A DNA stretch of 64,000 nt, taken from assembly GCA_963809205.1 (NCBI GenBank), contig CAWEIS010000002.1, positions 50,110-114,109 of the forward strand. The letters are read 5' to 3'. The DNA is from an uncultured Actinomycetes bacterium. Lineage in GTDB: Bacteria > Actinomycetota > Thermoleophilia > Gaiellales > JAICJC01. The notes under the pieces were generated by a model, which had not been told where the DNA came from, did no database searches, and saw only the letters and a program-made list of their open reading frames with translations. Shown here piece by piece: positions 3,301 through 28,220 of the stretch (the stretch's first letter is position 1; every line of letters begins with the position of its first letter). A program made the translations under genes and the position numbers.

Positions 3301-4353
3301 TGGCCAGACAGCGCGCAGGCCAAGCGCGCAATGCAGCGCGCGGCGCTCGTCGTCGTCATGGGCTAGCGGAGCGCCGAACAGGGCGATCAACACGAAGCCC
3401 TTGTCACTAACATCGATCTGGTACAAGTGGCCGCCGAGGCGCTCGATCACCTTGACGGCTCGGCGCACACTAGCGTCTAGACGGGTGACAGCGGTCGCGC
3501 GGCTCAAGTCGACTTCGCCCAGGCCGGCGAAGAGCACGCTCACGCGGCGATGCTCATCGACGAAGGCTTCGTGGCCGGCGGCCAGCCGATCGGCGATCGA
3601 GCGATGCAGGTAGGCGGCGGCCGCGGCCGGCACCGTCGCCGGCTTCAGCGGCCGCGCCGCCGGTCGCTGCGGGCGGCGCGCGAGGCGCTCCACCCGGCGC
3701 GCCCGTGCGGTGAGCGGCCAGGTCACCGCGCCCGGACAGAGCGCGAGGACGCTACGGTCGGCGGCCACCTCGCCGTGGCAAGCCGCCGCTTGGGCGGCGA
3801 CGCTGAGCCGGATCGGGCGGCCCGCGACGACTTGCTCAAGGCGCCGGTCGGGATCGCCAAGGACGACGCTCCAGACCGTCCCGGCAGCGACGCCGACGCG
3901 TATGGCCAAGCTGAAGTCACCAGCCAGCGTTTGCACGTGGGCGAAGGCGCCCATCGCCGCCTGCATGTCGAGCCCGCACTGCAGCGCGCGTCGCGCAGTG
4001 GCTCCATCGTGCGCCGTGCGCAGCGGGAAGACGATCGTGAGCGCGTCGCCGCCGAACTTCACGACCCGTCCGCCGTAGGACTCGATCACGCCCAGCATCT
4101 CATCGAAGTAGGCGTTTAGGAGTAGAGAGAGCTGTTCGGTGCCGCTGCTACCCACGGCTCCAAGCGCCTCGCTGAGCGGAGTGAAGCCAACAATGTCGGT
4201 AAAGACGACGACCACCCCCAGCTGCTCGGCGCTACCAGGAGTAGGAAGTGGCCGCCCGGAGGCGAGCGCATCGACGACCGCCGGCGGCAAGTACGCCATC
4301 CAGCGGTGACGCCCATGCGCCGCTCTAGCCTCGGTGGTAGTGTCGGCGGGCAC
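343..4353 (-). CDS. multidomain signalling protein: two class III adenylate/guanylate cyclase (CHD) domains + P-loop STAND-type ATPase + TPR-like repeats
   Basis: 1336-aa ORF. First cyclase core is VVVFTDIVGFTPLSE; a second, more divergent one is VSVLFAGLGE. Walker A is GQAGVGKSRL. The C-terminal half is TPR-like helical repeats. The downstream ATG at 4299 (MAYLPP..) is an alternative start. Confidence 0.85.
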   Translation of the reverse strand: MPADTTTEARAAHGRHRWMAYLPPAVVDALASGRPLPTPGSAEQLGVVVVFTDIVGFTPLSEALGAVGSSGTEQLSLLLNAYFDEMLGVIESYGGRVVKFGGDALTIVFPLRTAHDGATARRALQCGLDMQAAMGAFAHVQTLAGDFSLAIRVGVAAGTVWSVVLGDPDRRLEQVVAGRPIRLSVAAQAAACHGEVAADRSVLALCPGAVTWPLTARARRVERLARRPQRPAARPLKPATVPAAAAAYLHRSIADRLAAGHEAFVDEHRRVSVLFAGLGEVDLSRATAVTRLDASVRRAVKVIERLGGHLYQIDVSDKGFVLIALFGAPLAHDDDERRALHCALGLRAVWPRRARIGVNAGRVFCGQLGARRRLQYGALGDAVNLAARLMEAARPGQILVSEDAGGRVRGHFELPPIGPLGVKGKARPVAVLELGADAAPVLEEPPARFPLVGRGSELEQARALVAAALRGRGGALEVRGQAGVGKSRLAAEIAASARASGMLVLAGAAQPYADQAAYREWRAPLRGLLGLRERSGVAAVRELDHALEHIEPGLAARAPLLASPLNLRIPETELTRRLPPELRAELLCSMVLTCLRSASRRRPLLVLLEDGHWMGEPSRGLLEHVVRNLSELSMLVVVTGRHAQGEPPPLEPTSQVKLLELGELAAASTEELAALALSTAFAEAEPPPRLVTAVAERSGGNPLFVEELVSFLRGVAATVEEAAETAGPLGQLPDTLHSVVLARVDQLGEDEKATLKVASVIGRRFPAGWVSGSAPELGGREAVTRCLGALAAAELTPRLEGRPHVEHLFKHAVTRDVVYESMTHARRAQIHEQVARFVERAHTDDLDQQLEALAHHYGLSRNVAKKRIYLRQAGIAAKDAYANDAALDHFRRLAPLLKPAERGEIQRHIGEIHQHTGDWEAAQRAYRAALNQPATRAERAAARCHLGHLLSLRESYDDALPLLDQARSDLEQLGSDSLGSVLEYLTVTHLGRGDLTTARETASEQLRVADAAANLAARSSAADSLGLVHWYEGDHAAAIDWFEAALVAAAGAGDRRAIIHANNDLAGLCWERNDHARAMACLNEGFAAASEIGYRYALGVVAGNAGELHRRRGEVEAALRCYRFELEVCEELGDRAGLLSVAGNLGSLLGEGQRLTQAARLLAGAVRLARAQGDPGSLIEYLHALALVEQRRGALEEADRVNEEVLAFAVDTPASEIRLPAVTLAVSLSFERGHLRADEALAQLDELAAEWSDREGPAAVAYAAWKISRAEPKRAEAADRYRTLHAACPIAAYSRRYQELTGAELRPPEPLPELPLPKQREVDIDSLVERVLAHCP

Positions 4354-5212: not shown

Positions 5213-5482
5213 GCTACGACGGGAAGCGAACGAACACTTGGGCGGTAGGCAGGAATGTCCTGCATTGGGTCGGTGGCAACGCCGCGACGATCACCGTGCG
5301 CCTAACCGCCTGGTTTGAGCCAGAGTCCGACATCGCGCGTGCCCATCCGTGCCCGCTCAAACCCTCAAAGCCGTATGGTTGAGCCGAAAACCGGACCACA
5401 GCCGGGAATCCCCTTTAGGACACCGTCGACCCTGTGTGGGGTACACGTCGAGCGTCACCGACATCATCTCGAAGCGGGTTGG

Positions 5483-5594
5483 CCCCGTACCCCGCTTCGG
5501 CTCCTGTAGCGGGGGGTCGGGTGCGGAGCCTGGCACAGCCGACGCGATCCCATACCACGCGCGCACGCATCGAGCCTCCCGAACGAAGCAAACC
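5483..5594 (+). repeat. GC-rich intergenic repeat, locus A (1 copy, type I)
   Basis: ccccgtaccccgcttcggctcctgtagcggggggtcgggtgcggagcctggcacagccgac..ccataccacgcgcgcacgcat..cgaacgaagcaaacc. Aligns by eye with the copies at the other 8 loci. Confidence 0.85.
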
Positions 5595-5700
5595 ATCAAG
5601 CCGGTTCCCGGAACCGTCCGCGAAGTACGCCGCGTAACCCGCCCCGTAGCGGCATTTTCCTTCGGGCCGCCGAGGTCAGCCGGGCCGGCCTCAAGCGGCG

Positions 5701-6246
5701 ATGTCCGGCATGCTTCAGAATCGGGCCGTGCGCGAAGCGAGGGCTGCGGCGGGGAGTGTGGTGTTCCTAGTGGTGGCGCCGGGAGTCGTCGCCGGTGTGA
5801 TTCCCTGGTGGATTACCGGCTGGGCCGTTGAGCAGCCGTGGTCACATTGGGCGCTGCTGCGGGTGGCGGGCGGGGTCGTCTTGGCCGTGGGAATGGGTGT
5901 GCTGGTTCACGCCTTCGTGCGGTTCGTAGTCGAAGGCATGGGCACACCAGCGCCGGTCGCACCGACCGAGCGCCTCGTCGTCGGTGGCCTTTACCGGTAT
6001 GTCCGGAATCCGATGTACCTCGCGGTGGGCGCGATCATCGTCGGTCAGGCGTTGCTGCTGGGCCAAATGGTGTTGCTGCCCTACGTTGCGGCCTTCGGCA
6101 TTGCAGTCGTGGCGTTTGTGCATTGGTATGAAGAGCCGACGCTGCGGCGCCGGTTCGGCGATGAGTACGAGGCGTACCGCCGTGCGGTGCCGGCCTGGTG
6201 GCCACGCCGTCGGCCATGGCAAGGCATCGAGCGCGACGCGTCGTGA
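5701..6246 (+). CDS. isoprenylcysteine carboxyl methyltransferase / phospholipid methyltransferase family membrane protein
   Basis: 181 aa with several TM segments. Contains the family-typical stretch LVVGGLYRYVRNPMYLAVGAIIVGQALLLG followed by EEPTLRRRFGDEYEAYRRAVP. Confidence 0.7.
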   Translation: MSGMLQNRAVREARAAAGSVVFLVVAPGVVAGVIPWWITGWAVEQPWSHWALLRVAGGVVLAVGMGVLVHAFVRFVVEGMGTPAPVAPTERLVVGGLYRYVRNPMYLAVGAIIVGQALLLGQMVLLPYVAAFGIAVVAFVHWYEEPTLRRRFGDEYEAYRRAVPAWWPRRRPWQGIERDAS

Positions 6247-6491
6247 CGTCGCGGGGCAGGGCATGACCGGGCTTCGCGTTCGGAGTCCGTCGATCGGTCA
6301 ATCTGACGGCTGCATGCCAGCCTGTCCTGGCCGTCTATCACCTGGATGGCAAGACCGGGCGGTTTGTCCGGGCGGCACTCGACGTGGTTACCCTGGTGGC
6401 TCGCGAATCTCGAGATCACCGGCTTCGTCGCTGCCCCGCGAGTATCCGACCACGTACACCGACACGCCCCGGATTCTCCACCGGCAGCGCT

Positions 6492-6770
6492 ATGTACGAG
6501 GATCTGCGGCTGGCGGGATTCCATGGCGGTCCGGACGGGATCACCGTCTCCCACACCCCGGGCACGCCGACGACCGACGACGAGCTGCTGGTCGACGGCC
6601 GGCTGCTGCAACTGGAACCGGAGACCGCCGCGACGATCCTGGCCACTACCACCTTCCGCGTCCTGCTCGATCCCGACGGGCGGATCGTTGCCGCGTGGGA
6701 CGAGGAGCGGACGCCGAGTGAGTGCGATGCCTTCACTCGAGACTCAACCGACTGGTACCGCGGTCGATGA
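6492..6770 (+). CDS. small hypothetical protein
   Basis: 92-aa ATG-initiated part of ORF 6384..6770 (MYEDLRLAGFHGGPDGITVSH..). Balanced composition, no recognisable family, and followed by an inverted repeat at 6810-6852. Confidence 0.3.
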   Translation: MYEDLRLAGFHGGPDGITVSHTPGTPTTDDELLVDGRLLQLEPETAATILATTTFRVLLDPDGRIVAAWDEERTPSECDAFTRDSTDWYRGR

Positions 6771-7301
6771 GCGATCCGCGATGTCCGTCCAGCCTGGCCC
6801 TTGACGCGACCTGTGGGCCACTCACAGATCTGGACAGTCAGCGGCCCACAGGACCGTGACCAGGCCAACTGACAGGCGACCCACGGCGCCGGTAGACGCT
6901 GACCGCTAGTACCCGCGGACCGGCGGGGCGAACTGCTCGTCGGTCGGTACAGGCCCGCCCCGCTTCCACAAACACCCGGCAGGCCACCTGGAGGAACGCG
7001 GCCGCCGCGGCGCGCCATCAGCGTACACCCGGTCGATCGGCCCACCGAACATGCTCGGGTTGCCGAAACCGGCGTCGTCAATCAGGGACGAGGAGCACGT
7101 TGGGCGCTCCCTCGGGGAGAGCCGGGTGCATCGCCTGGCTCCAGTCGGGCACCGAACATTCGATGGTCGCGAACCTAGCCTGCTACAGCAGCCGAGGCGG
7201 TGACGCTGGCTGCCTAAAGCACCTGACTCGGCCACACGGCGCCTACTCAGCTGCGTGGCGGGGTCGAACCGCGCTAGCTTCTTGCCATACCGGGAGGGCC
7301 A

Positions 7302-7859
7302 ATGGCTGACGATCAACTGCGGGTACACGAGGCGGGGATGGAGAGGACTGTCGAGGGGGTTCGACCAGTCGGTGAGGGGTGGTTCGTAGTGAACGTGGCG
7401 GAGCTGGCGGCGCGGCGCAACGAGCGGATGGGCATTACGTGCTCGCCGGAGCCCGATGATGCCCGGTTCCCGGAGTTCGGCTTCAACCTGCGCGTGCTCG
7501 AGCCCGGACAGTTCAACGCGCGCTACCACCGCGAGAACGATCAGGAGGCATTCCTCGTGCTCTCCGGCCAGTGCATGCTCATTGTCGAGGGCGAGGAGCG
7601 GTTGCTTCACTCAGGAGACTTCTTCCACAGCCCACCGCTGACCAGCCACGTGTTCGTCGGCATGGGTGCGGGGCCCGCCATGATCCTCATGGTAGGCGGA
7701 CGCACGCGGGAGTGGCGCGAGGGCGAGGGCTTTCCGGTCGATGCGACCGCCGCGCAGTACGACGCGAGCGTCGCCGAACCCACCACCTCGCCAAAGGTCG
7801 CCTACAGGGACATACCTGACGGCGAACCGGCGCGACTGCCATGGCCCCCGCCGGCCTGA
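7302..7859 (+). CDS. cupin domain protein
   Basis: 185 aa with a cupin-like core: FNLRVLEPGQFNARYHRENDQEAFLVLSGQCMLIVEGEERLLHSGDFFHSPPLTSHVFVG. Confidence 0.7.
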   Translation: MADDQLRVHEAGMERTVEGVRPVGEGWFVVNVAELAARRNERMGITCSPEPDDARFPEFGFNLRVLEPGQFNARYHRENDQEAFLVLSGQCMLIVEGEERLLHSGDFFHSPPLTSHVFVGMGAGPAMILMVGGRTREWREGEGFPVDATAAQYDASVAEPTTSPKVAYRDIPDGEPARLPWPPPA

Positions 7860-7862
7860 CGA

Positions 7863-7970
7863 CGACCAACACGGAGCACGCCTCGCGGGTCCTGCCATCC
7901 GCCCCCTCGACCGGATTCAGTGGCAGATTCGAAACTCAAACCGCTCGGACGAGAACGATGCACTTCTTCG
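7863..7970 (+). pseudogene. remnant of a second Rieske iron-sulfur protein gene (3' part, with internal deletion)
   Basis: 7863-7941 aligns with 15643-15721 inside the intact Rieske gene: 79 nt, 6 mismatches by eye. It encodes ..QHGARLAGPAIRPLDRIQWQIRNSN. From 7941 the match jumps to about 15913-15936, the sequence just after the Rieske stop. Confidence 0.7.
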
Positions 7971-8225
7971 CCGACGATTCCTATGAGACTCCGGCGGCGC
8001 GGCCGGGCAGATCGGGCAAGGGGTTGCCGGGCGCTCAGCCGGGGGAGCGGGGAGGACGCGTCGCCAGCCATCGCCTCGCGTACGCCGACGGAAGCGACGC
8101 GAACCAACCATGGAGCCAAGGTCAACGATCAGACCAGTTGGGCGCTCATCTGATCCGCAGTCGTTTCCGGATTTCGGTGCGAGCCGTAACGCGGAGATTC
8201 GCGGACGCATATGGTTGGTTCGATT

Positions 8226-8285
8226 AGCGAGCACGAGCTGAAGGGCGTGGCTGACCGGTGGCGACTCTGTCGGATGGTGGCATGA
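8226..8285 (+). pseudogene. remnant of the C-terminal end of a cyclase (CHD) gene
   Basis: Encodes SEHELKGVADRWRLCRMVA-stop. The nucleotides match the 3' end of the downstream hydrolase-cyclase gene (GEHELKGVPDRWHLYRV, 9550-9600) at about 40 of 48 positions. No upstream coding body is present. Confidence 0.5.
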
Positions 8286-8286
8286 C

Positions 8287-9609
8287 GTGATCGAGATGCC
8301 GAAGACCCAGTGGGCGGTGACGGTTGACGGTGCCTACATCGCCTATCAGGATGTCGGCCAGGGACCGCAGGCTCTGGTGCTGATCCATGGGTGGTGGTCT
8401 CACCTGGAGCTGTCCTGGGAGGACCCGTCGTATGCGCGGTTCATGGATCGGCTGAGCCGCCGGTTGCGAGTGCTCGTGTTTGACAAGCGCGGGACGGGGA
8501 TGTCGGATCGGTTCACGGAGCCGCCGCATCTGGAGGCGCGGATGGACGATGTGCGGGCGGTGATGGATGCGGCGGGTGTGGAGCGGGCGGCGCTGCTTGG
8601 TTGGGGGACGGGCGGCCCGCAGCTGGGCTGCATGTTCGCGGCCACCTACCCGGAGCGCACGGTGGCCCTGTGCATCGACCCCAACGTGCACGAGGCCTGG
8701 GAGGGGGCGGCCACCGAGGAGGAACTCGAACGCGAGATCGAGCAGTTGACCGCCATGTGGGGGCGCGATGACGTCCCGCTGTCGGGTTACGACGATGCTC
8801 CCACCGACCCGGAGTACGTTCGCGCGGAGGCTCGCGCGGCGAGGTTCTCCGCGACTCCCGGCGGCATCGCCGCCCTCACCCGGATGTGGTTCCACACCGA
8901 TGTCCGCGACGTGCTGCCGACGATCCGCGTACCGACACTCGTCTTCCACAAGGAACGCGGGTGGTCGAACCCGGAGAGCGCCGCGCGCGCGGCGGCACTG
9001 ATACCCGGTGCCCGTATCGCGGCCGTCGGTGGCAGCGAGACGGTGATCTTCGTCGAGGATCCCGAGCCACTCGTCTCGGCGATCGAGGCGTTCCTCGGGC
9101 CGATCTGGGATGAAGAGCAGGACCTCGATCGGGTGCTCGCGACGGTGCTGTTCACCGACATCGTGGACTCGACCGCGCAGGGGGCAGCGCTCGGCGACCG
9201 CGCATGGGGCGAGGTTCGCGCCGAGCACGATCAGATCGTGCGGGCAAACCTGGCCCGGTACCGCGGCCGTGAGATCAAGACGATGGGCGACGGGTTCCTC
9301 GCCACCTTCGATGGCCCGGCGCGCGGTGTCCGATGCGCGGAGGCGATCGCCGCACAGGTGCAGCCGCTCGGCGTCGAGATCCGCGCCGGGCTGCACACCG
9401 GCGAGATCGCGTTCGAAGCCGACGACGTCGCCGGACTCGGCGTGGCGATCGGCGCGCGCGTGGGCGCGAAGGCAGGCGCCTCCGAGGTGCTCGTGTCCCA
9501 GACCGTGAAGGACCTGGTCGCCGGTAGCGGCCTCACGTTCGAGGACGCTGGCGAGCACGAGCTGAAGGGCGTGCCCGACCGCTGGCACCTCTACCGGGTC
9601 ACCGGCTAG
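8287..9609 (+). CDS. alpha/beta hydrolase - class III adenylate/guanylate cyclase fusion protein
   Basis: 440 aa. The N-terminal alpha/beta-hydrolase fold includes LVLIHGWWSH and LLGWGTGGP. The C-terminal CHD runs VLFTDIVDSTAQ..IKTMGDGFLATF..GLHTGE. Same architecture as mycobacterial LipJ-type proteins. ATG at 8296 is an alternative start. Confidence 0.85.
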   Translation: MIEMPKTQWAVTVDGAYIAYQDVGQGPQALVLIHGWWSHLELSWEDPSYARFMDRLSRRLRVLVFDKRGTGMSDRFTEPPHLEARMDDVRAVMDAAGVERAALLGWGTGGPQLGCMFAATYPERTVALCIDPNVHEAWEGAATEEELEREIEQLTAMWGRDDVPLSGYDDAPTDPEYVRAEARAARFSATPGGIAALTRMWFHTDVRDVLPTIRVPTLVFHKERGWSNPESAARAAALIPGARIAAVGGSETVIFVEDPEPLVSAIEAFLGPIWDEEQDLDRVLATVLFTDIVDSTAQGAALGDRAWGEVRAEHDQIVRANLARYRGREIKTMGDGFLATFDGPARGVRCAEAIAAQVQPLGVEIRAGLHTGEIAFEADDVAGLGVAIGARVGAKAGASEVLVSQTVKDLVAGSGLTFEDAGEHELKGVPDRWHLYRVTG

Positions 9610-9633
9610 GCAAGACCACTCTCAAGGCACCGC

Positions 9634-19056: not shown

Positions 19057-19350
19057 GCGTCGGCGTGCGCAGTCGACCGAATCCCCTACCACGCGCGCAT
19101 GCATACGGCCGCCCACACGAGGGTGAAGGGCGCCTTACGCGACGCCAGGCCCAGAGCGGGGTGTGGGGGTGCGGGTCGCCGAGGACGTCCGCTCCTCGCG
19201 CGTGCGCGCGCATGCATAGGGCCGCCCACACGAGGCGAACCTAGTCGCCCAGTTGCGGGAAATCCGCGACGACCGGGTCGGGGGGTGCGGATGCGCCGGG
19301 ATGTGCTCGACTCGCGCGCAACGCACAGGGCCGCTCAGACGAGGCGAATC
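19057..19350 (+). repeat. GC-rich intergenic repeat, locus E (1 5'-truncated copy + 2 full copies)
   Basis: Units at about 19057-19130 (3' two-thirds only, type I), 19131-19241 and 19242-19350 (type II). Confidence 0.85.
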
Positions 19351-19358
19351 CTGGCGCC

Positions 19359-20541
19359 TCATGGCGGGTCGTGCGTCTCGTCGATCACCGGTGCGTGGGC
19401 AAGGTAGTGGCCGAGGTGGCGGGCTGCGATCTTTCCTCCTGGCCACCAGAGCGGCTCGGTGCTGGTGGTGGCTGTGCGGCCGTGTCCGCCGCTGAGGTCG
19501 GCAAACAGGTAGCGCGGGGTATCGCCTGTGAGTAGGAGTCCCTGGAGCACTGGGCGAAGCGGGGGTGGGTCATCCAGTGGAGCGCCGGCGCGCTTGGCGA
19601 GGACTTGCGCGACGAGGTCAGCTTGTTGGGCGGCGATGCCGCCTTGTTTGATCGGGAAGGTCGTGATGTCGCCGATCGCGTAGACGTCGTCCAGGCCGCG
19701 GACTCGGCCCTGCTCGTCAGTGGGGAGGAAGCCTTCTTGGTCGTGGGGCAGCCCGGGGATGGGGATCCCGCGGGCCTCCGGGACAGAGACGACCTGGTCG
19801 GCAGGCAGCTTCCCCAGCGGCACCAAGACGAGGCCGCCTTGATAGACGCCGACGGGGTAGGTGCCGGTGCGGAGCGCGATGTGACGATCGGCGAGTAGCT
19901 GCTCGACCGCGGTGCTGACATCGCCGCCAAAGCGGCTCAGCGGTCGCATCTCCGGGGTCACCAGGTCGAGCGAGACGCCGTCGATTCGATGCTCTGCGAC
20001 GTATGTCGCGGTCAACAAGGCCAGCTCGTAAAGCGGGAGTTGCCACGAAGCTGCTCGTGGGATGGCGAAGATGACGCGCTTGACGACGCCGGAGCTGATG
20101 TCCAGCAGCAGCGATTGGATGGCTTTCACGTCTTCCTCGCCTCGGAAGACCAATGCCCCTTTGAGCGCCCCCACACGACGAGCCCCACAAGCGATCACCA
20201 CGGCGTCGTACGTCGAGCTCGTCACCGGCATCGGTGACACCACGATGCTCGACCGCGTCAACGCGCTCCAGCGACGCCGAGACCAGACGAGCGCCAGCCG
20301 CCTCCGCGATATCTGACAACGCGAAGCGGACAACCTCGCCTCGACCAAACGGCACCGCCACCGAGGCCGGCCGATAGCGAAACTCCGACCCCGGACACAA
20401 CAGCGTGAGCACGACTCGCTCCTCCGCCAGATCACGCAGCGCCAAGAGCACCTCCAACGCTCCCACGCCACCACCAACGATCAACACGCGGAATCGTCCG
20501 CGATCATCGGACGCGGCGCGATCTTCGGGTGTGTTAGCCAT
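19359..20541 (-). pseudogene. FAD-dependent pyridine nucleotide-disulfide oxidoreductase (sulfide:quinone oxidoreductase / NDH-2-like), frameshifted
   Basis: The N-terminal Rossmann part RVLIVGGGVGALEVLLAL..VDAVEHRGVTDAGDELD is in the frame of ORF 19717..20688. The rest (YDAVVIACGAR..VYAIGDITTFPIKQGGIAAQQA..) is in the frame of ORF 19359..20477. The two frames meet at a single extra nucleotide near 20211. Confidence 0.7.
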
Positions 20542-20887
20542 GTTGTCCAGCCAAGTGCGGCTCATCGGTTCGCCACGACGCCCTCGCTGCCGACCCCCAC
20601 AACGGGAAAACGACCAGCAGCGCCCTCCGAACCTCCCGACCTGGCGACGCCCCCAATCGCACATCCACCCGCCCTGTACCCGAAGCATCCTCCATTACCT
20701 CACCATGCTACGCCTCCACAGCGGGAACGACGTCCGAGACCATCCTGATCCGTCCACCCGTAGAAACCCACCAACTCCTCCGCTGGGCTCCCCTCCCTCG
20801 GCCGACCTGCCCGCCCCAGACCGCGTTGCCATTGCTGATCGTCTGCACTGCGCGACCCGAGGGCGCGCGCGAACTTCCCTCAGGTTG

Positions 20888-21160
20888 CTAGTCCGCCAGC
20901 CGTTGGTGGACTAGTAGAACGGCCATCGAGCCCTCGCCAACCGCTGACACGACGCGCTTGATCGAGCCAGATCGGACGTCGCCAGCGGCGAACACCCCGG
21001 GACGGATGGTCTCAAGGACCTGAGGCCGCTCCGCGCCGCCCCACTCCGTCAGATCTTCGCCCTGTAGGTAGGGGCCGGTTAGCAGGAAGCCTGCGCTGTC
21101 GGTCGCCAGCTGTCCTTCGAGCCAGTCTGTGTGCGGGACTCCTACTGGATGCCGCTCTGG
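20888..21160 (-). pseudogene. C-terminal fragment of a thioredoxin-reductase-like FAD oxidoreductase
   Basis: Encodes ..GVPHTDWLEGQLATDSAGFLLTG..LETIRPGVFAAGDVRSGSIKRVVSAVGEGSMAVLLVHQRLAD-stop, which is only the last ~85 aa of such enzymes. The 5' side is replaced by repeat copy F. Confidence 0.6.
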
Positions 21161-21242
21161 GTACTGGGATGTGGGGGTGCGGCTCTCGCCAGCCCGATGT
21201 CCTCGCGCGCACGCATGGCGCCGGTCAGACGAGGCGAATGAT
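21161..21242 (+). repeat. GC-rich intergenic repeat, locus F (1 copy, 5' end degenerate)
   Basis: ctgggatgtgggggtgcggctctcgccagcccgatgtcctcgcgcgcacgcatggcgccggtcagacgaggcgaatga. Confidence 0.75.
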
Positions 21243-21448
21243 ACGGGACCGCTGGCGGCGGTGACCACGGCGACGCTCGGGATCCCTACGGGGCGTGCCG
21301 AGCCGAGCGAAGGACGCCGAGCTAGACGGACCCCAAATCAAGTGTTGTAATCTCCACCGGCTGGCCGTCGTGATCCGCGTCGTCGCCTTGGCGGGATCCC
21401 GTTCCCATCCGAGGGCCTAGGCTGCGCGGTCTTCTCGTGCCTCGTCGG

Positions 21449-22222
21449 TCAGCTGAGCGAGTTGATGTAGGCGATCAGCTGCTGGATCTGTTGGTCGTTG
21501 AGGATCCCGCCCCAGTGGGGCATGCTGACGATCGGGGGCTCACCCAGCACGCTGCCGCTGCGGATCACGTCGGCCATTGCCTGGCTGTCGAACTCCTTGT
21601 GGAAGCCGGCGCCGACTAGGGCCGGGATGGTGCCGTCGGGAGACGCTGGATTGGGCACGCCGCCAAGCGCGTTGGGGCCATGGCAGTTCACGCACCCGTA
21701 CCCGTCGTACAGCGCCATGCCGGCGACGACGTCGCCCTGGTTCGTCGGCACCTCCGTGGGAGTGGCGCCGGAGACCTGCGGGAAGCCGGCTTTGATGTAG
21801 GCCACGAGGGCATCGATCTGGTTCTTGGAGATGACGCCCTTCCAGACCGGCATGTACGGCTTGGTCGGGTTGGACGAGACCCCCGCCCCGTGCTCGATGA
21901 TCGACGTCAGCTGCTGCGATGTCAGCGTCGAGGCGACCGACTGAAGGTCGGGGACGTCCGGTGACACCCCGCCGGCACCCTGCGGGCCATGGCACTGCCC
22001 ACACGAAAACTGGACGAACGCGTGGGCTCCGACGGCGACCTGCGGGTCGACCGCCGCGGGCGCCGAAGTGGCCGTCGTGGCCGACGCGGCCGTCGCCGGC
22101 GCGTTCCCGCGACCCGCCCAGTACGCGGTCAGCGCCACCACCACGATCACCAGTCCAATGGCGCCGATCGCGATCAGCACATCACCGGTTCCGCCGCCCC
22201 TGCCCGACCGCTCTTCGTGCAT
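21449..22222 (-). CDS. membrane-anchored dihaem cytochrome c
   Basis: Two CxxCH haem-binding motifs (CGQCHG, CVNCHG). N-terminal TM segment VLIAIGAIGLVIVVVALTAYWA. I chose the ATG at 22222 (MHEERSG..) as start. Confidence 0.8.
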   Translation of the reverse strand: MHEERSGRGGGTGDVLIAIGAIGLVIVVVALTAYWAGRGNAPATAASATTATSAPAAVDPQVAVGAHAFVQFSCGQCHGPQGAGGVSPDVPDLQSVASTLTSQQLTSIIEHGAGVSSNPTKPYMPVWKGVISKNQIDALVAYIKAGFPQVSGATPTEVPTNQGDVVAGMALYDGYGCVNCHGPNALGGVPNPASPDGTIPALVGAGFHKEFDSQAMADVIRSGSVLGEPPIVSMPHWGGILNDQQIQQLIAYINSLS

Positions 22223-22603
22223 AACGACACTATCGTACCTGACGGTTTCGGCGCGGGAAGAAGCCCACACCTCGGAACTCGGCGTTCTCGCCGAACGGGG
22301 TCGTGCAGGCGATCCCGCCGCAGTCCGGGGTTGGCTCGCGGGTGGTAATCCGGTTGCGATCGCCTGAGTGGGCGGTGGTTCGGGCGGCGCCGCGCAACGA
22401 GTGCCAGTGTGGCGGTGGCGTAGTCGTTGCCATGGTCGGTGACGATGTGGACGTGCAGCGTCGGCGCCTCGAGCTTCGTCCGCATACCGGGAGGGTGTTA
22501 TCGCGCGACTCGCGTCGTTCGTGTGTGGACGTCGTCACGATCACGCCGCCCTCCGCAACCGTCACCTGGAACCATCATCCCAGCCCGCCGGTCTCAGGAC
22601 TGG

Positions 22604-22981
22604 ATGAGATACTTGCTCTGCCTCTGGGTGATGGTGGTGGTCACGGTCGGCTGCGGCTCATCCCAGTCTTCGGAGCGCTCAGGCTCCCTGTTGGTCATGG
22701 TCACTGCGGGCCCGACTTGCCCGGTGGCCCGGGTCGATCAGCCGGCCTGCACCCCTCGACCGGTGAAACGAGCGCAGCTTCGACTCGAAGGGCCAGCCAG
22801 CCTGACCCTCGTCACCGATAACGCAGGCATCGCGCGTGGCGATGGGATCATCGTCGGCAGCTACCGCCTGGCGGCCCAGCCGGTCGACGGGGTGATGGGT
22901 ACGCCGCCACCGATGCGGGCTGTGATTCGCCAGGACGAGACGACGACCGTGTCCGTCAGCTACGACACGGGGATCCGCTAG
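22604..22981 (+). CDS. small lipoprotein, hypothetical
   Basis: ATG at 22604 gives MRYLLCLWVMVVVTVGCGSS, a signal peptide with a lipobox Cys. The remainder is beta-rich, possibly a carboxypeptidase-regulatory-like fold. The upstream part of ORF 22427..22981 looks non-coding. Confidence 0.55.
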   Translation: MRYLLCLWVMVVVTVGCGSSQSSERSGSLLVMVTAGPTCPVARVDQPACTPRPVKRAQLRLEGPASLTLVTDNAGIARGDGIIVGSYRLAAQPVDGVMGTPPPMRAVIRQDETTTVSVSYDTGIR

Positions 22982-23070
22982 CCACACTCAAGGCTCCACC
23001 GACGACTCCGTCGCCTCTCCCGGATGGTGCTGGAGCAACCCGCTTGCTAGCCGGTGCTACGGGAGTCGGT

Positions 23071-23297
23071 CCCCGTACACCATCCCGGCTCCTGTAGCGG
23101 GGGTCGGGGTGCGGATGCGCCGGGAACGTGCTCGTCTCGCGCGCACGCGCACGCATGCATAGGACGGCTCACACGAGCGTAACGAGTCCCATCCCCCGTC
23201 TCGGCTCCTGTAGCCGGGGGTGGGGGTGCGGGCCTGGCACCGTCCACCCGATCCCTTCCACGCGCGCGTGCATAGGGCCGCCCACACGAGGCGAAGG
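23071..23297 (+). repeat. GC-rich intergenic repeat, locus G (2 head-to-tail copies, type II then type I)
   Basis: Units at about 23071-23185 and 23186-23297. The first contains a 24-nt perfectly alternating purine-pyrimidine run at 23138-23161. Confidence 0.9.
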
Positions 23298-23351
23298 ATC
23301 GTCGTCCGGCCAGAAGTTGCCACCTGCACCCTCGTCGCTGCTAGCCCGGAT

Positions 23352-26300
23352 CTACCTCAACTGCGCCGCTCGCCAACGCGTAAGCTCGGTGGAAGCGCGC
23401 AGCTCGAGCGCCTTCGCCTCCTGACGTCGCGCCACCTCAAGGGCTAGACCAAACGCCGCCTCGATGTCGGCCGCTCCGGCGCCCGACGCGGCGAGCAGCT
23501 CGCCGCGGAGGCGTAGCAGCTCCGACTCCAGATAACGGGCGCCTGTGCGTCGCGTCATGTCGAGGGCGTTCTCCATCGCCTCGAGGCCCTGCCTTGGCTC
23601 GCCCACGAGGAGGCACGCTCGGGCAAGCAGAGAGAGGAAGTATGTGTTCAGGAGTGTCTGTTGAGTTTCGTCGAGCCTCGTGATCTCCGCCTTCATAGAG
23701 TTGATCGCATCGCGATCTCCATGGCGAGCGAGAGACCAGTGTCGAAGAAGTGCCGCCCAGATCCGCATCACGTGGAACGGCTGCTCGTCCGTCGCGAGGG
23801 CCTCGGTCGCCTCGACCAGCTCGGCTCGCGAGGATTCGTCGCCAAGATCTTGACTCACGATCGCGCCGTAGAGGCTCGCGTAGCATCTGCTGAACGGATG
23901 ATCCAGCTCGTCGGCCAGGGAAAGAGCGGAGTCACGCGCCTCGGCCGCCCGGTCGGGATAGCCGAGAAACCAGAGCGTCCACGCCAGTCGACTGAGGCAC
24001 ACCACTTTCGGGTCTTGGGAGTAGAGGGTGGTGTGCGTTTCATGTCGCTCGGACGAGTACCGTTCGATCGCATTCTCCAGGTGGCAGCGAGACTGTAAGA
24101 GTTCGCCCTCCCAGAACGAGGTTACGCCCAGGACGTATTCACCCTCGACCATGAGGATTGGATCTTTGTCGCGCTCCCCTGCGGCGAGCAACGCGATCCC
24201 GTCCTCCCTCGCGTCGTCGAGCTCAAGTCGCAGGAGGGAGTTCAGTGCCAGCCCCCGAAGGATGGGTGGGCTGACGGCTCGTCCGAGCTTGGCACAGAGA
24301 TCTCGAGCTTTGGAGTAGTCGGGGGAGCCCCAACCACGCGCGGCACCGAGCATGATCGTAAGCTCGAGTTCCTCCTCGTCGCGGCTAGGACCCTCGGGCG
24401 CCTGTCCTAGGAGGTTGAGCGCGTGGGTGAGCGCCTCGGCGGCCTCGTCGTTCGCGAACACCCGGAGGGCGAGCTCGGCTCCGCGCCGATAGTAAGAAAT
24501 GGCCCGCGCCGGGACGCCGGCCTCGAGCCAATGCCCCGCTAGAGCCAGTATGTGCTCCGGCGTTTCCTCTGCGTGGCCCTCGAGTGCCTCGGCCGCCGCT
24601 CGATGCAGGCGCCTGCGCTCGTCCGCGAGGATGGTGGAATAGATCGCCCCCTGGATCAGCACGTGCTTGAATCGATACTGAGGCTGGGGCCAGCGCCGGT
24701 CCGCGACGACGAAGCCGAGCCGCTGGAGCTCGTGAAGCGTTTCTGGCAGGGTGAGCTCCGCGGCTACGAGCTTCGCAAGTAGCGCGAGGTCGAACTGGCG
24801 GCCGATCACTGAGGCGGCCGCCAGCACTGCGCGGCAATCCGATGGCAGACGGTCAGCACGCGCCAGGATCACCTTGCCAACTGTCTCGGGGATGACGATC
24901 GGGACCGCATGGTCGAGGCGCCAACCCCTCCCATCTTCTTCGACCAGCGCCCCGGCATCAACGAGGGAGCGCACGAGCTCCTCGAGGTAGAGGGGATTGC
25001 CGTCTGCGGCCTCCAGCACCCGGCCCTCGAGCTCCTTGGTCAATGTTCCGGCGCCGATCAGCTCGTTCAGGAGGGTGCGTTCGGCGTCGGCCGGGAGTGG
25101 TTCGAGGGCGATCTCACGGATGAGGTGCGGGAATTCGCGCGCCGCGTCCTCCTTGAGCGCCCATGCTGCATGGTCACGATCGTCACGTTGGGTGATCACG
25201 AGCAGCACTGCAGTTCGCTCGATGACCGGCAGGAGGGATCTCGCGAGCTGGGTCGACGTGACGTCGGCCCAGTGCAGGTCCTCGAGAGCGACGACGAGTG
25301 GTCTGTCCTGCGCCATCCGCTCGAGCAGCTCTCCGACGGCGGCGAACGTGCGGTGTTGCAGCTCCTCGGCGGTAAGCGCGGGGTCGTCTTCTGTGGCGAC
25401 GCCGAGCAGCGACGCAAGATAGGGGTAGACCACCACGGGGGACCCGCCGAAAAGTTGGTCGACACCTCGCCGGAGTGAGATCCGGACTCGGAGTTCCGGG
25501 TCATCCTCATTCACGCCGAGCCAGCCGCGGAGGAGATCTCGGAATGGGAAGTACGGCAGCGTCTCGCCGTAGGAGAGGCATTGCCCCTCGAGCCAAAGGA
25601 GGGGCTGCGACCCGCCGCCGGCTTCGGTCTCCTCCTGCGAGTCGGCGAGGAGGCGGCTCTTCCCAACGCCAGCTTCGCCGGTGATCAGCACAACACTTCC
25701 GGTCCCGTTGCGTACATCCCGGAGCGCCTGACGCATGGTCGAGATCTCCTGCTCTCGCCCGACGATGGCCGTCTGGACACCGGCAAAGCCGCGTACCCGC
25801 GACCTCATCGGCAGCGCGGCGCGCAAGGAGACGGCGCGCACCGTCGCGACCTTCCCTTTCACGTCGAGGTCTCGGGGCTCACTCCAAACGAAGAGCGGCT
25901 CGATCAGCCGTTGCGTGTGGGTATCGACGAGCACTGTGCCGGGCTGGGCGGAAGATTGCAGGCGCGCAGCCGTGTTGACCGTGTCGCCGAAGGCTGCGTA
26001 TTCGACGCGCTGCCCCGACCCGATCGGGCCGAGCGCCACCGGCCCGGTGCTGATGCCGACGCGTACGCGTAGATCATCCACGCCCCACCCGCGCGCGACC
26101 TCCGAGCTGTATTCGGCGATCGCCTCCAAGATATTCAACGCGGCGCGTGCCGCGCGCTCGACGTCGTCCTCGTATGACGTTGGGGCGCCGAAGAAGGCCA
26201 GCACTCCGTCGCCGGCGAGATCCTTCACGTAGCCGCCGAGGCGCTCGACTTCAACCGCGATGCGGCCGACCGCCTCCCCAACGACCAGCCGAACCTCGTC

Positions 26301-26408
26301 CTCGTGGAGACTCTCACCGAGCGCGGTCGATCCGGCAAGGTCGGCGAACAGCACTGTGATGATCCTGTACTCCTCGCGCACCTGGTTCAAGCCCCCGCGC
26401 TGTGTCAC
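23352..26408 (-). CDS. class III cyclase (CHD) - P-loop STAND-type ATPase - TPR-like repeat signalling protein
   Basis: 1018 aa. Cyclase core ITVLFADLAGSTALGE..GDGVLAFFG. Walker A GEAGVGKSRL. The C-terminal third is TPR-like repeats. Confidence 0.85.
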   Translation of the reverse strand: MTQRGGLNQVREEYRIITVLFADLAGSTALGESLHEDEVRLVVGEAVGRIAVEVERLGGYVKDLAGDGVLAFFGAPTSYEDDVERAARAALNILEAIAEYSSEVARGWGVDDLRVRVGISTGPVALGPIGSGQRVEYAAFGDTVNTAARLQSSAQPGTVLVDTHTQRLIEPLFVWSEPRDLDVKGKVATVRAVSLRAALPMRSRVRGFAGVQTAIVGREQEISTMRQALRDVRNGTGSVVLITGEAGVGKSRLLADSQEETEAGGGSQPLLWLEGQCLSYGETLPYFPFRDLLRGWLGVNEDDPELRVRISLRRGVDQLFGGSPVVVYPYLASLLGVATEDDPALTAEELQHRTFAAVGELLERMAQDRPLVVALEDLHWADVTSTQLARSLLPVIERTAVLLVITQRDDRDHAAWALKEDAAREFPHLIREIALEPLPADAERTLLNELIGAGTLTKELEGRVLEAADGNPLYLEELVRSLVDAGALVEEDGRGWRLDHAVPIVIPETVGKVILARADRLPSDCRAVLAAASVIGRQFDLALLAKLVAAELTLPETLHELQRLGFVVADRRWPQPQYRFKHVLIQGAIYSTILADERRRLHRAAAEALEGHAEETPEHILALAGHWLEAGVPARAISYYRRGAELALRVFANDEAAEALTHALNLLGQAPEGPSRDEEELELTIMLGAARGWGSPDYSKARDLCAKLGRAVSPPILRGLALNSLLRLELDDAREDGIALLAAGERDKDPILMVEGEYVLGVTSFWEGELLQSRCHLENAIERYSSERHETHTTLYSQDPKVVCLSRLAWTLWFLGYPDRAAEARDSALSLADELDHPFSRCYASLYGAIVSQDLGDESSRAELVEATEALATDEQPFHVMRIWAALLRHWSLARHGDRDAINSMKAEITRLDETQQTLLNTYFLSLLARACLLVGEPRQGLEAMENALDMTRRTGARYLESELLRLRGELLAASGAGAADIEAAFGLALEVARRQEAKALELRASTELTRWRAAQLR

Positions 26409-26532
26409 GGCGCCGTGTGTCCGACTGTAACAGGCGCAACGATCCGGGGTGCCTCGTGTTCAAGACCGTCGCTCGGGCGCAGCGGCTTCCCACGAGCGGC
26501 AGCGATGTACAACCGCCATCCCGCCATGGAGC

Positions 26533-26790
26533 TTAGGATCCCGGTCTGTGTATGACCCCGATCCGGTACTGGTCCGAGAACAGCACGAACGTCAGCGTCG
26601 CTTCGGCCACCCAGCGGACGGATTCACTCCAGATCGTCGGGTCGAGCCACCCAAGACCATCCGTGCTCGCAACGATGCCGCCGGCGACAAACACGATCGC
26701 GGGAGTGATCGCAGCTCCCAAGAGGCGTCGCGAGACCGCCGCGTAGGCGAGGACGAGCACGCGATCGCGACGAGACCCCGAGCCGCCCAA
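26533..26790 (-). pseudogene. N-terminal fragment of a cation:proton antiporter-like membrane protein
   Basis: 85 aa (..RRLLGAAITPAIVFVAGGIVASTDGLGWLD..VAEATLTFVLFSD..) resembling the first two TM helices of Na+/H+ exchanger-family proteins, then a stop. The next gene starts 125 nt further on. Confidence 0.45.
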
Positions 26791-26821
26791 CGTTTCACGC
26801 TCCTCCGGAGCGGCGCCTCCT

Positions 26822-26985
26822 CACCATACCCAGCCTCGGCTCCCGTAACGGGGGGTCGGGGTGCGGCTCTCCGCCAGCCTGACGTCCCCGCGCGCACGCG
26901 CGCACGCATGGGGCCGCTCGGACGAGGCGAAGGGCAGCCGACCTCCCCATCCCCCGCTTCGGCTCCTGGAGCGGGGCCGCGGCCC
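26822..26985 (+). repeat. GC-rich intergenic repeat, locus H (1 full copy + 5' hairpin half of a second)
   Basis: Full unit at about 26822-26933, then ctccccatcccccgcttcggctcctggagcgggg at about 26943-26975 without the 3' half. Confidence 0.85.
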
Positions 26986-27361
26986 CGGCCGACCCAGCGC
27001 CTAGACCGTCAAGCAGGCAAGGCGGCGGTGTTGGCGTGTGATCACCCCGCACACACCAGCACGCGATTCAGCAGCGGTTACGACGTGGGCAACTGCGTGG
27101 TTACGCGAAAACGGCTTGGTTGAGCGGCATATGACCATCCTGGCGCTCCCGCGAGCGGCGTCCGCTTCGCGGCGGCGGTGGTGTCGGCTGCTTAGCGGTG
27201 GTCTGCCGGCGGGGCGGGCGTCTGGCGGGCGATGGGGAGCCCACCGCTGATCACCTGTGACGGTACGCCTGCCGCGGGAACCGTGCAACCGTTCCCAAAT
27301 CGTTCCCACCGCGGGGAATCAGCATCAGGTGATGCTCCGTGATTCCGCGTAACCATGGGAG

Positions 27362-27434
<73 letters not shown>

Positions 27435-27536: not shown

Positions 27537-28220
27537 TTGAGCATCGCACACCACCCACCCGAACACGAGCTCTTCCAGGGACTTCTCGATGGAGACCTGG
27601 TGGCGCTGGACGAGCGCTCGACGGCGCTCACCTTCGCCAAGGGCGAGCTGATCTACTCGCCGTTCGACCGGGGTGAGTCGATCTTCCTGCTGGAGGAGGG
27701 CCGGGTGCGCATCTACCGCAGCGCCCACGACGGCCGCCAGCTGACGCTGGCGATGCTCGACCCGGGCATGTCGTTCGGCCAGGTGGCCGTGCTCGAGCAC
27801 GAGCTGCAGGACGCGTACGCGGAGGCGCTGACCGACTGCTCGGTGCGCCTGCTCACCGCCGACGCGCTGGAGCGGGCGATGGCCGAGCATCCGCGCCTCG
27901 CGCTGAACCTGATGCGCGCGCTGGCCGCCCGCCTGCGCGACGCCGAGGATCAGGTCGAGAGCCTGGCGTTCCGGCCGGTGCCGGCGCGGCTCGCGGGCAA
28001 GCTGCTGGAGCTGATGGACCGCTACGGCCGGGTGACGCCCAGCGGCATCCGGATCGACGAGCGTTTCACGCACCTCCAGCTCGCCGAGATGATCGGCACC
28101 AGCCGGGAGACGCTGACCAAGGTGCTGAACGAGCTTCGCGACGAGCATCTGATCGACGTCCGCGAACGCTTGGTGTGGGTGCTCGACGTCGACGGCCTCG
28201 AGCGCCTCAAAGGCGCCTGA
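27537..28220 (+). CDS. Crp/Fnr family transcriptional regulator
   Basis: 227 aa with a TTG start. cNMP-binding beta-barrel ([26 protein letters not shown]) and C-terminal HTH ([25 protein letters not shown]). Confidence 0.85.

Follow-up and report, generated by a model that had tools for sequence, protein, structure and literature searches.

Why should some sixteen copies of a GC-rich repeat of about 115 nt, lying between genes that run in both directions, all point the same way, and why should they stop abruptly at 27 kb? The question is raised by a 64,000-nt stretch of DNA from an uncultured Actinomycetes bacterium of the Gaiellales (GenBank assembly GCA_963809205.1, contig CAWEIS010000002.1, positions 50,110 to 114,109), here called the window. 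All coordinates are in window numbering (the prefix w marks a window position), and L-numbers are labels of the contigs and strains compared with it. A preliminary description, made from the letters of the window, had recognised the repeat as an unclassified family. The answer that we favour, with about even confidence, is that the units are a lineage-specific, non-coding, DNA-level repeat, interspersed and tandem, of the kind represented by mycobacterial interspersed repetitive units (MIRUs), repetitive extragenic palindromes (REPs) and bacterial interspersed mosaic elements (BIMEs). They would be carried on horizontally mobile DNA, chiefly an island at a tRNA-Met gene, and would serve there as a substrate for recombination.

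Repeat finding followed by an iterative nhmmer profile on both strands (cut-off E<0.01) located 16 units in the window, 12 full-length (about 113-118 nt) and 4 partial, at eight intergenic loci between 5481 and 26976. All 16 are on the plus strand, with E-values from 2e-28 to 6e-3. The best nhmmer match on the minus strand has only E>=0.5, and the same is true right of 27 kb, where the 37 kb of core sequence (27-64 kb) hold no unit. A degenerate 28-nt pattern drawn from the 3' module matches nine times with at most two mismatches, against 0.00 expected from 100 shuffles. The family is real in that its copies align under a profile. The count of about 16, the eight intervals first listed (correct within a few bases), the consensus, the intergenic position and the confinement to the plus strand of the left 27 kb all stand; nine loci had been counted, and eight were found, together with two scraps of unit tail. 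The family extends past the left edge of the window. A left extension of about 10 kb, reached via the cyclase gene, holds five further units at four or five loci, all in the same orientation. This brings the region to 21 co-oriented units out of 21, at 13 loci over about 37 kb, and uniform orientation at 13 loci has a two-sided probability of 2^-12 if the loci are independent. Across all 17 distinct loci of the lineage, which hold arrays of 1, 2, 3 or 8 units, 45 of 46 units are co-oriented. The regularity is stronger than was claimed, and the strand-specific mechanism proposed on its account is plausible.

The orientation of the units is independent of the direction of the flanking genes. All units of the window fall between called genes, 10-270 nt away from gene ends, and the eight loci comprise three convergent, one divergent, two tandem-sense and two tandem-antisense contexts. 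The peptide signature that had been noticed in the open reading frames (ORFs; ..HARVVWDRVDCARL..) results from translating the strand opposite the unit. An RNA function had also been proposed, and the unit could in principle encode or form part of a structured RNA, such as a small RNA family, a cis-regulatory element, a stabiliser of 3' untranslated regions or a terminator. GC-rich hairpins can form in it, at seven of the eight window loci the units are downstream of one gene or more, and actinobacterial terminators often have no U-tracts. Against this, dinucleotide-shuffled sequences fold as well as single units do (z -1.5 to +1.4), and the RNAalifold consensus folds are weak on both strands (-9 and -13 kcal/mol; compensatory pairs number 1 and 0) and show no covariation. 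Entire segments are exchanged between sub-types of the unit, one arm of the best conserved stem among them, and the orientation of the units ignores gene direction. In Rfam, the tRNA alone passes gathering thresholds in the 64 kb, and a search of 17300-19500 at E<=10 gave nothing credible on the units. A promoter or terminator module was rejected because no consensus sites for either occur within the units. The structured RNA was likewise rejected on single folds, both-strand consensus folds, a terminal-pairing test and Rfam, and we regard it as highly improbable.

Array termini are in phase with the unit, which is therefore a discrete element whose ends are defined: 3' ends are canonical in 18 of 19 arrays and 5' starts in 15 of 19. 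Its 5' part is a GC hairpin module, CCCCGCyTCGGCTCCTGkAGCsGGGG, followed by GGTsGGGGTGCGGA, and its 3' end is sharp, GGGCCGCyCAsACGAGGCGAA(GG). Between them lies a variable middle segment; this segment or the 5' segment distinguishes at least four sub-types (A, B, B' and C). Mean pairwise identity among units is 63%, yet several blocks are almost invariant (GGCTCC...GGTGCGGAGCC and CACGCGCGCAYGCATAGGGCCGC). Every unit contains a perfect alternating pyrimidine-purine tract of 11-24 nt (CACGCGCGCAYGCATA), and 12 of the 15 such tracts of at least 14 nt in the window are inside units. These Z-DNA-prone tracts (for example 9814-9837, 23138-23161 and 26889-26910) differ in length among units and strains, with an additional CACG in L015 at w26908, and two strain breakpoints sit at the edge of such a tract. 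As a cause of the polarity the tract was ruled out, because it is strand-symmetric. No canonical G-quadruplex motif is present in the units.

Sub-types are dispersed among loci. A sub-type C unit of exactly 115 nt occurs with 94.8% identity at two sites 28 kb apart whose flanks are unrelated, and a B-A pair occurs as a block at two loci, one in the window and one in the left extension, with 81% identity. A unit mostly has its closest relative at a different locus or on a different contig, and not beside it in its own array. By these relationships the arrays are mosaics of dispersed sub-families, as in BIMEs. A single ancestral satellite split by random insertions was rejected, since array ends are in phase with the unit. 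The view that the copies are not insertions of a classical MITE (a miniature transposable element with inverted repeats) is borne out by the lack of terminal inverted repeats (TIRs) and target-site duplications (TSDs). The flanks of the 19 arrays show no TSD, direct repeats or common target, and a 13-nt terminal complementarity found by eye was paired in 58% of cells, a value at least as high in 482 of 500 shuffles.

The repeats stop at 27 kb because a strain-variable region, apparently a recently transferred genomic island attached at the 3' end of a tRNA-Met gene, has its boundary there; the preliminary description missed this context, which explains the confinement. The island occupies 1-27360, carries all units of the window, appears recently shared among strains and continues left of the window. 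The tRNA-Met (CAT) gene (27361-27434, minus strand; ARAGORN and Rfam) has its 3' end at the right boundary. Homology with the conspecific L001, L003 and L004 and with the sister species L018 and L019 ends at w27340-27351, just past this 3' end. A breakpoint at w27340-27368 is found in seven comparisons, and at least four different sequences lie left of the tRNA among conspecific strains; the alternative left flank of L001 has no units. L116 and L008 differ from the left region of the window by about 0.2% in every site class, as opposed to 6-10% at third codon positions (synonymous) right of the tRNA, and the change from one level to the other falls at w27368, within the acceptor/T-arm of the tRNA. 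By this measure the island DNA comes out as much younger than the adjoining core. The GC content at third codon positions is 0.81-0.87 in the left 27 kb and 0.90-0.96 in the core. Across the left 27 kb and the 10 kb of the left extension, Pfam searches found no integrase, tyrosine recombinase or transposase. Within the same 37 kb no far end of the island (a second attachment, or att, repeat) was found, and one contig shows the region running for at least 107 kb.

The tRNA-Met gene is itself a hot spot of integration or recombination (27340-27434; L001, L003, L004, L006, L018 and L019), and the sister species too carry further sequences to its left. A motif of about 25 nt resembling GTGTCCCCAAAATGTCCCCA lies 60-90 nt left of the gene in all variants. 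The tRNA of the window has a compensatory T-stem variant, GGATGG/CCATCG as opposed to GGGAGG/CCTCCG.

Natural strain variation provides cases in which a junction falls inside a unit. L015 has a hybrid unit that follows a unit left of the window in its 5' part, up to TCGGCTCCTGTAGCGGGGGGTCGGG, and the unit at 5481-5596 in its 3' part. The approximately 6.4 kb between these parental units, with four genes including that of a 1290-aa cyclase, is missing from L015. Such a hybrid is what homologous recombination between two direct repeats should yield. Where L099, L100 and L102 have two units, L098 and L101 have one, with an in-register junction in the 3' module, and the polymorphism is represented by two and three independent assemblies, respectively. 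The two crossovers lie at different positions of the unit, which argues for general and not site-specific recombination. One further breakpoint coincides with a unit edge (w5480 in L010, where there is microhomology of 5 bp), and others fall at or inside units (w26908 in L015, and the synteny break between L007 and L119). As read from these junctions, homologous recombination between units across loci and within arrays is shown to lead to gene-block deletion and copy-number change, a point that the preliminary description had likewise missed. Not every rearrangement involves units, since the junction of a 6.5-kb insertion or deletion at 8037-14572 lies outside them. This segment, which holds the hydrolase-cyclase gene, a 281-aa ORF, SBP_bac_5 and most of the Ser/Thr kinase gene, is missing in L014, L015 and L120, and the deletion truncates the kinase. 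Comparison of filled and empty sites near the tRNA (L004 and the window) met a patchwork region that offers no clean pair.

Smaller traces of rearrangement are present on the island. Downstream of the cupin gene lies a duplicate of 79 nt of the Rieske gene (92% identity), together with a scrap of unit tail (7863-7964 and 15643-15937), and a 47-nt copy of a cyclase C-terminus lies upstream of the hydrolase-cyclase gene (8227-8273 and 9551-9597). These gene fragments resemble remnants of segmental duplication and deletion.

The loss of one block precisely between two units is also what would be seen if the units were site-specific recombination sites that bound gene cassettes, as integron attC sites do, or were att leftovers of serial island integration at tRNA-Met. 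Like attC sites, they are co-oriented, of similar length (about 100 nt) and placed between gene blocks in a variable, tRNA-adjacent region whose block content differs among strains. The likeness ends there. The attC core sites (GTTRRRY and RYYYAAC) occur in 0 of 12 units on either strand, and no whole-length dyad or hairpin is predicted. No integrase was found in about 105 kb of the lineage's DNA, genes lie in both directions, arrays of up to eight units have no cassette between them, and the position of the two observed crossovers varies. The attC identity was rejected for want of core sites, dyad and IntI. Serial att scars were rejected as well: the units are unlike the tRNA 3' end, no tRNA-like segment occurs elsewhere in the window, and no tRNA lies near the arrays of the second locus (L119 and L007, described below). 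The rival is largely refuted, and only a very slight chance is left to it.

A further reading makes the units not passengers but polar docking modules of a mobile island, an integron-like array that works independently of an integrase. A unit-bearing DNA circle might enter, and a unit-flanked block might leave, by recombination at units, possibly with help from a protein that recognises the near-invariant blocks. Under this arrangement all units necessarily stay co-oriented. In a variant, a strand-specific enzyme would copy units only on the strand exposed during transfer of the island. We consider this unlikely.

Pseudo-peptides of the family, encoded by opposite-strand frames that stay open through arrays, were run as bait against a protein collection. 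They retrieved only three ORFs, and two of these led to a second locus on contigs L007 and L119, which are orthologous to each other (88.6% identity). On each of the two contigs, an array of eight and an array of three co-oriented units lie between an MMPL gene and ferritin/tatA/tatC. The sole unit of the 46 that is not co-oriented is an inverted, truncated one in L007, beside the synteny break. The array-bearing non-coding tract of about 2.5 kb (L119 2898-5500 and L007 1-2600) is 90-100% identical between the two contigs (arrays and spacers 90-97%), as against just 75-83% for the flanking genes (ferritin, tatA and tatC), which indicates that the tract probably is a recent recombination import. 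Use of this contrast as a sign of unit mobility was dropped, since the right end of the tract lies within the ferritin-like gene and the tract may be an ordinary import. The central units of the orthologous eight-unit array are the most diverged part of a tract otherwise 96-100% identical, which would fit a faster turnover of units by exchange within the array.

Searches beyond these contigs were negative. One degenerate pattern gave no real match in 185,579 GTDB species genomes, the JGI metagenomes and IMG/VR, and a second gave none in the JGI metagenomes and IMG/VR; 12 JGI matches that hit a 25-nt pattern alone were not counted as real. No blastn match to the units was found among PLSDB plasmids and INPHARED phages. 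With nhmmer, no unit was found at the ruvB loci of 80 relatives (1.35 Mb) or at two loci of cyclase orthologues (78% and 71% identity). Because none of these collections and loci contains it, the family appears to be confined to a very narrow lineage. It is new in sequence and previously undescribed, so that the label "unclassified" was apt, with no match in Rfam or any other collection searched.

The host of this lineage can be placed through the core. The right half of the window carries ruvCAB, queA-tgt, secDF, recJ and relA, and an identical RuvB protein is present in several ENA metagenome assemblies and in one metagenome-assembled genome (MAG) at NCBI. The nearest GTDB genomes are uncultured Gaiellales (Thermoleophilia), and the closest relatives are a Microflora Danica MAG and a Gaiellales MAG with 92-95% DNA identity. 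The gene calls for L003, L005, L008 and L116 (ENA ERZ250395xx) break up or join many housekeeping genes (RuvB of 265 aa, a SNO-YebC fusion and QueA in two pieces), which suggests long-read indel errors. Several of these contigs end exactly at repeat units.

From left to right, all on the plus strand and with nhmmer E-values, the units of the window are as follows. A solitary full-length unit of sub-type A lies at 5481-5596 (E=9e-27), and its 5' edge is both the L010 deletion breakpoint and the start of L015 homology. The first array of three units begins 20 nt past the stop codon of the hydrolase-cyclase gene with a sub-type A unit at 9629-9745 (E=2e-28). It continues with a sub-type B unit at 9746-9860 (E=5e-17), which has a different middle segment with a 24-nt alternating tract and its nearest relative in L007 (85% identity), and ends with a partial unit, the 3' half only, at 9859-9915 (E=1.5e-3; profile positions 51-111). 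A solitary sub-type A unit at 14983-15092 (E=5e-23) occupies the divergent spacer between the kinase (minus strand) and Rieske (plus strand) genes. The second array of three consists of A units: one with a diverged 3' end at 17418-17532 (E=5e-24), one at 17537-17651 (E=8e-27) and one with a variant 5' module at 17651-17765 (E=3e-27), whose nearest relative is again in L007 (84% identity). Next come a 5'-truncated A unit at 19057-19124 (E=2e-12; profile positions 32-109), the full sub-type C unit at 19128-19242, whose 94.8% identical twin lies about 9 kb left of the window, and a further 5'-truncated unit at 19281-19349 (E=5e-7). The solitary B' unit at 21148-21242 (E=5e-14) has an extended 5' module in common with an L007 unit. 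The B-A pair is formed by a B unit at 23068-23180 (E=5e-17) and an A unit at 23185-23299 (E=4e-27). At the last locus, a B' unit at 26819-26935 (E=8e-19), within which L015 homology stops at 26908, the end of the alternating tract, is followed by a 5' unit fragment at 26946-26976 (E=6e-3). Two probable remnants of 3' tails, seen by eye and sub-threshold in nhmmer, lie at 7940-7964, following the duplicated Rieske fragment, and at 15905-15937 (GCGCACGCACCCGCTCGGACGAGAAGGACGC), just past the Rieske stop codon.

What process would lay such units down in one orientation? Strand-specific transposition, like that of IS200/IS605 elements (PMC5027513) or REP-associated tyrosine transposases (RAYTs; PMC3116915), would also explain the polarity and is a serious rival. 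The units would be non-autonomous elements mobilised in trans by a transposase that acts on single-stranded DNA (IS200/IS605 TnpA-like, RAYT-like or another HUH enzyme). Insertion in one orientation, on the strand exposed in replication or island transfer and preferably at the end of an existing unit, would give head-to-tail arrays. The near-absolute orientation (45:1), the discrete ends, the 94.8% identical copy 28 kb away and the dispersed sub-families all suit this explanation. So do the lack of TIRs and TSDs, as in IS200/IS605 elements, and the GC-rich hairpin near the 5' end. A replication-related orientation bias of such elements is documented (PMC5027513, PMC3971601), and the strong strand bias and sub-terminal hairpin of IS200/IS605-derived elements (PMC5027513) have their likeness here. 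However, Pfam searches of about 105 kb of DNA from the unit-bearing lineage (the window, the left extension, L007 and L119) found no Y1_Tnp, RAYT, IS91-type or other transposase. The 5' flank has no conserved target sequence of the tetra- or pentanucleotide kind, and Rfam gave no match to IS605-associated RNA motifs. Replication-coupled insertion should not spare the core, and yet the adjacent 37 kb on the same replichore are without units. The 5' hairpin is present in units, and a consistent 3' hairpin was not seen. On balance, we judge transposition of this kind to be rather unlikely.

The orientation could alternatively be the object of selection, with the units as polar signals for the island or chromosome (loading or direction of an FtsK/TraB-type translocase, partition, or regulator arrays). 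Conjugative elements of actinomycetes contain repeated 8-mers (clt) that are read by TraB, and the FtsK-orienting polar sequences (KOPS) are polar as well. The units are associated with transferred DNA, keep near-invariant blocks despite 63% mean identity, and are co-oriented on the probable leading strand, as judged from a weakly positive GC skew in the core (+0.02), a proxy that is near 0 and uninformative at the second locus in L119. The known polar motifs are 8-mers, though, not units of 115 nt, and arrays of eight units and partial units do not easily fit a role as sites. Neither a translocase gene nor a partition gene lies nearby. Between strains, the substitution rate of units is no lower than that of neighbouring DNA, in a test that is powerless because the whole island is only about 0.2% diverged. 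A role as polar signals seems improbable.

Among described repeats, the closest analogue is the MIRU, by analogy of behaviour. The units resemble MIRUs in their actinobacterial host, in high GC content, in a length of tens to about 100 bp, in a strictly intergenic position, in their occurrence at many loci singly or head to tail, in strain-variable copy number and in having no transposase of their own that is known (PMC3184786). Intergenic tandem units, many loci and copy-number variation among strains were all found here. MIRUs, however, follow the direction of operon transcription, their small ORFs overlap flanking genes, and short direct repeats are present at filled sites (PMC3184786). The units described here ignore gene orientation, show no TSD, have lengths (113-118 nt) that are not multiples of 3, reside on mobile or young DNA and lack sequence similarity to MIRUs, so the analogy fails on orientation and ORF overlap. 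With REPs, BIMEs and the REPIN-RAYT system they have in common that they are non-autonomous, GC-rich, hairpin-containing, intergenic and lineage-specific, form mosaic clusters of sub-types and act as recombination substrates. REPs are palindromes of 21-65 bp that occur genome-wide and in inverted pairs (REPINs), with a single-copy RAYT gene (PMC3116915, PMC3337134). In contrast, the present units are 115 nt long, non-palindromic, head-to-tail (1 of 46 inverted) and chiefly in accessory DNA, and no RAYT or TnpA was found in the 105 kb, so the REP/RAYT-like identity proposed at the outset did not hold. The behaviour is that of an unusual variant within a known class of bacterial intergenic repeats.

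The history that we favour, of a MIRU/REP/BIME-like repeat on mobile DNA, would run as follows. Copies would have been laid down by an orientation-preserving process, likely starting with insertion or conversion at or beside existing units. Unequal crossing-over, ectopic conversion and Campbell-type gain or loss of unit-flanked blocks would then have acted on them. All three preserve direct orientation, and inverted copies would cause inversions. Within the island, only direct arrangements, which are prone to deletion and not to inversion, would arise and persist. The units themselves may be selfish or neutral passengers, whose practical effect would be to make the island modular and unstable.

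Several points weigh against this history. No process that would establish a unit at a new locus was seen. Homologous recombination shuffles and removes units; it leaves unexplained their initial spread and the solitary full-length units in unique DNA. The inspected DNA amounts to about 105 kb, and a trans-acting enzyme may be encoded elsewhere in the genome. The near-invariant blocks in otherwise diverged units hint at protein recognition or function. The second locus lies among housekeeping genes, which makes "island-only" too strong a description. Finally, the hybrid unit of L015 and the deletion form of L010 are each represented by one metagenome contig.

The gene content of the island was read from Pfam searches. 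The left 27 kb encode three adenylate cyclases of the AAA_16/TPR kind, a Ser/Thr kinase to which an SBP_bac_5 domain is either fused or adjacent, and proteins of the Rieske, cytochrome c, cupin, PEMT and FUSC types, with genes in both directions. The three cyclase paralogues are clustered on the island (343-4353, 8287-9609 and 23352-26408; two with AAA_16, one also with TPR), and a Crp-family cNMP-binding regulator of the core (27537-28220) directly adjoins the cluster. The kinase and SBP_bac_5 ORFs (10956-14922, minus strand) are a single 1320-aa gene in sister strains (L100 and L121). In over 90 proteins from Gaiellaceae, each about 1200 aa long (P0027-P0121), an oligopeptide-type solute-binding domain is joined to an AAA_16 ATPase and a class III adenylate cyclase. 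This fusion is an unusual signalling architecture that seems to be characteristic of the Gaiellaceae group.

Small intergenic repeats such as REPs, MIRUs, BIMEs and MITEs are among the least understood parts of bacterial genomes. In the Thermoleophilia and Gaiellales, an abundant uncultured group of soil bacteria, knowledge of them is almost nil. The present family has three features that are rarely combined: near-absolute co-orientation whatever the direction of the genes, mosaic head-to-tail arrays of units with defined ends, and residence on DNA that moved recently between diverged strains. For assemblies of this lineage, the units explain breaks of short-read MAG contigs at these positions. 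For the biology of the island, natural strain variation shows short repeats sculpting it through gene-block deletion and array contraction. If the polarity does reflect a strand-specific copying enzyme or a recombination module, it would represent a novel path of modular island evolution; otherwise, the family is a tidy but ordinary lineage-specific repeat.

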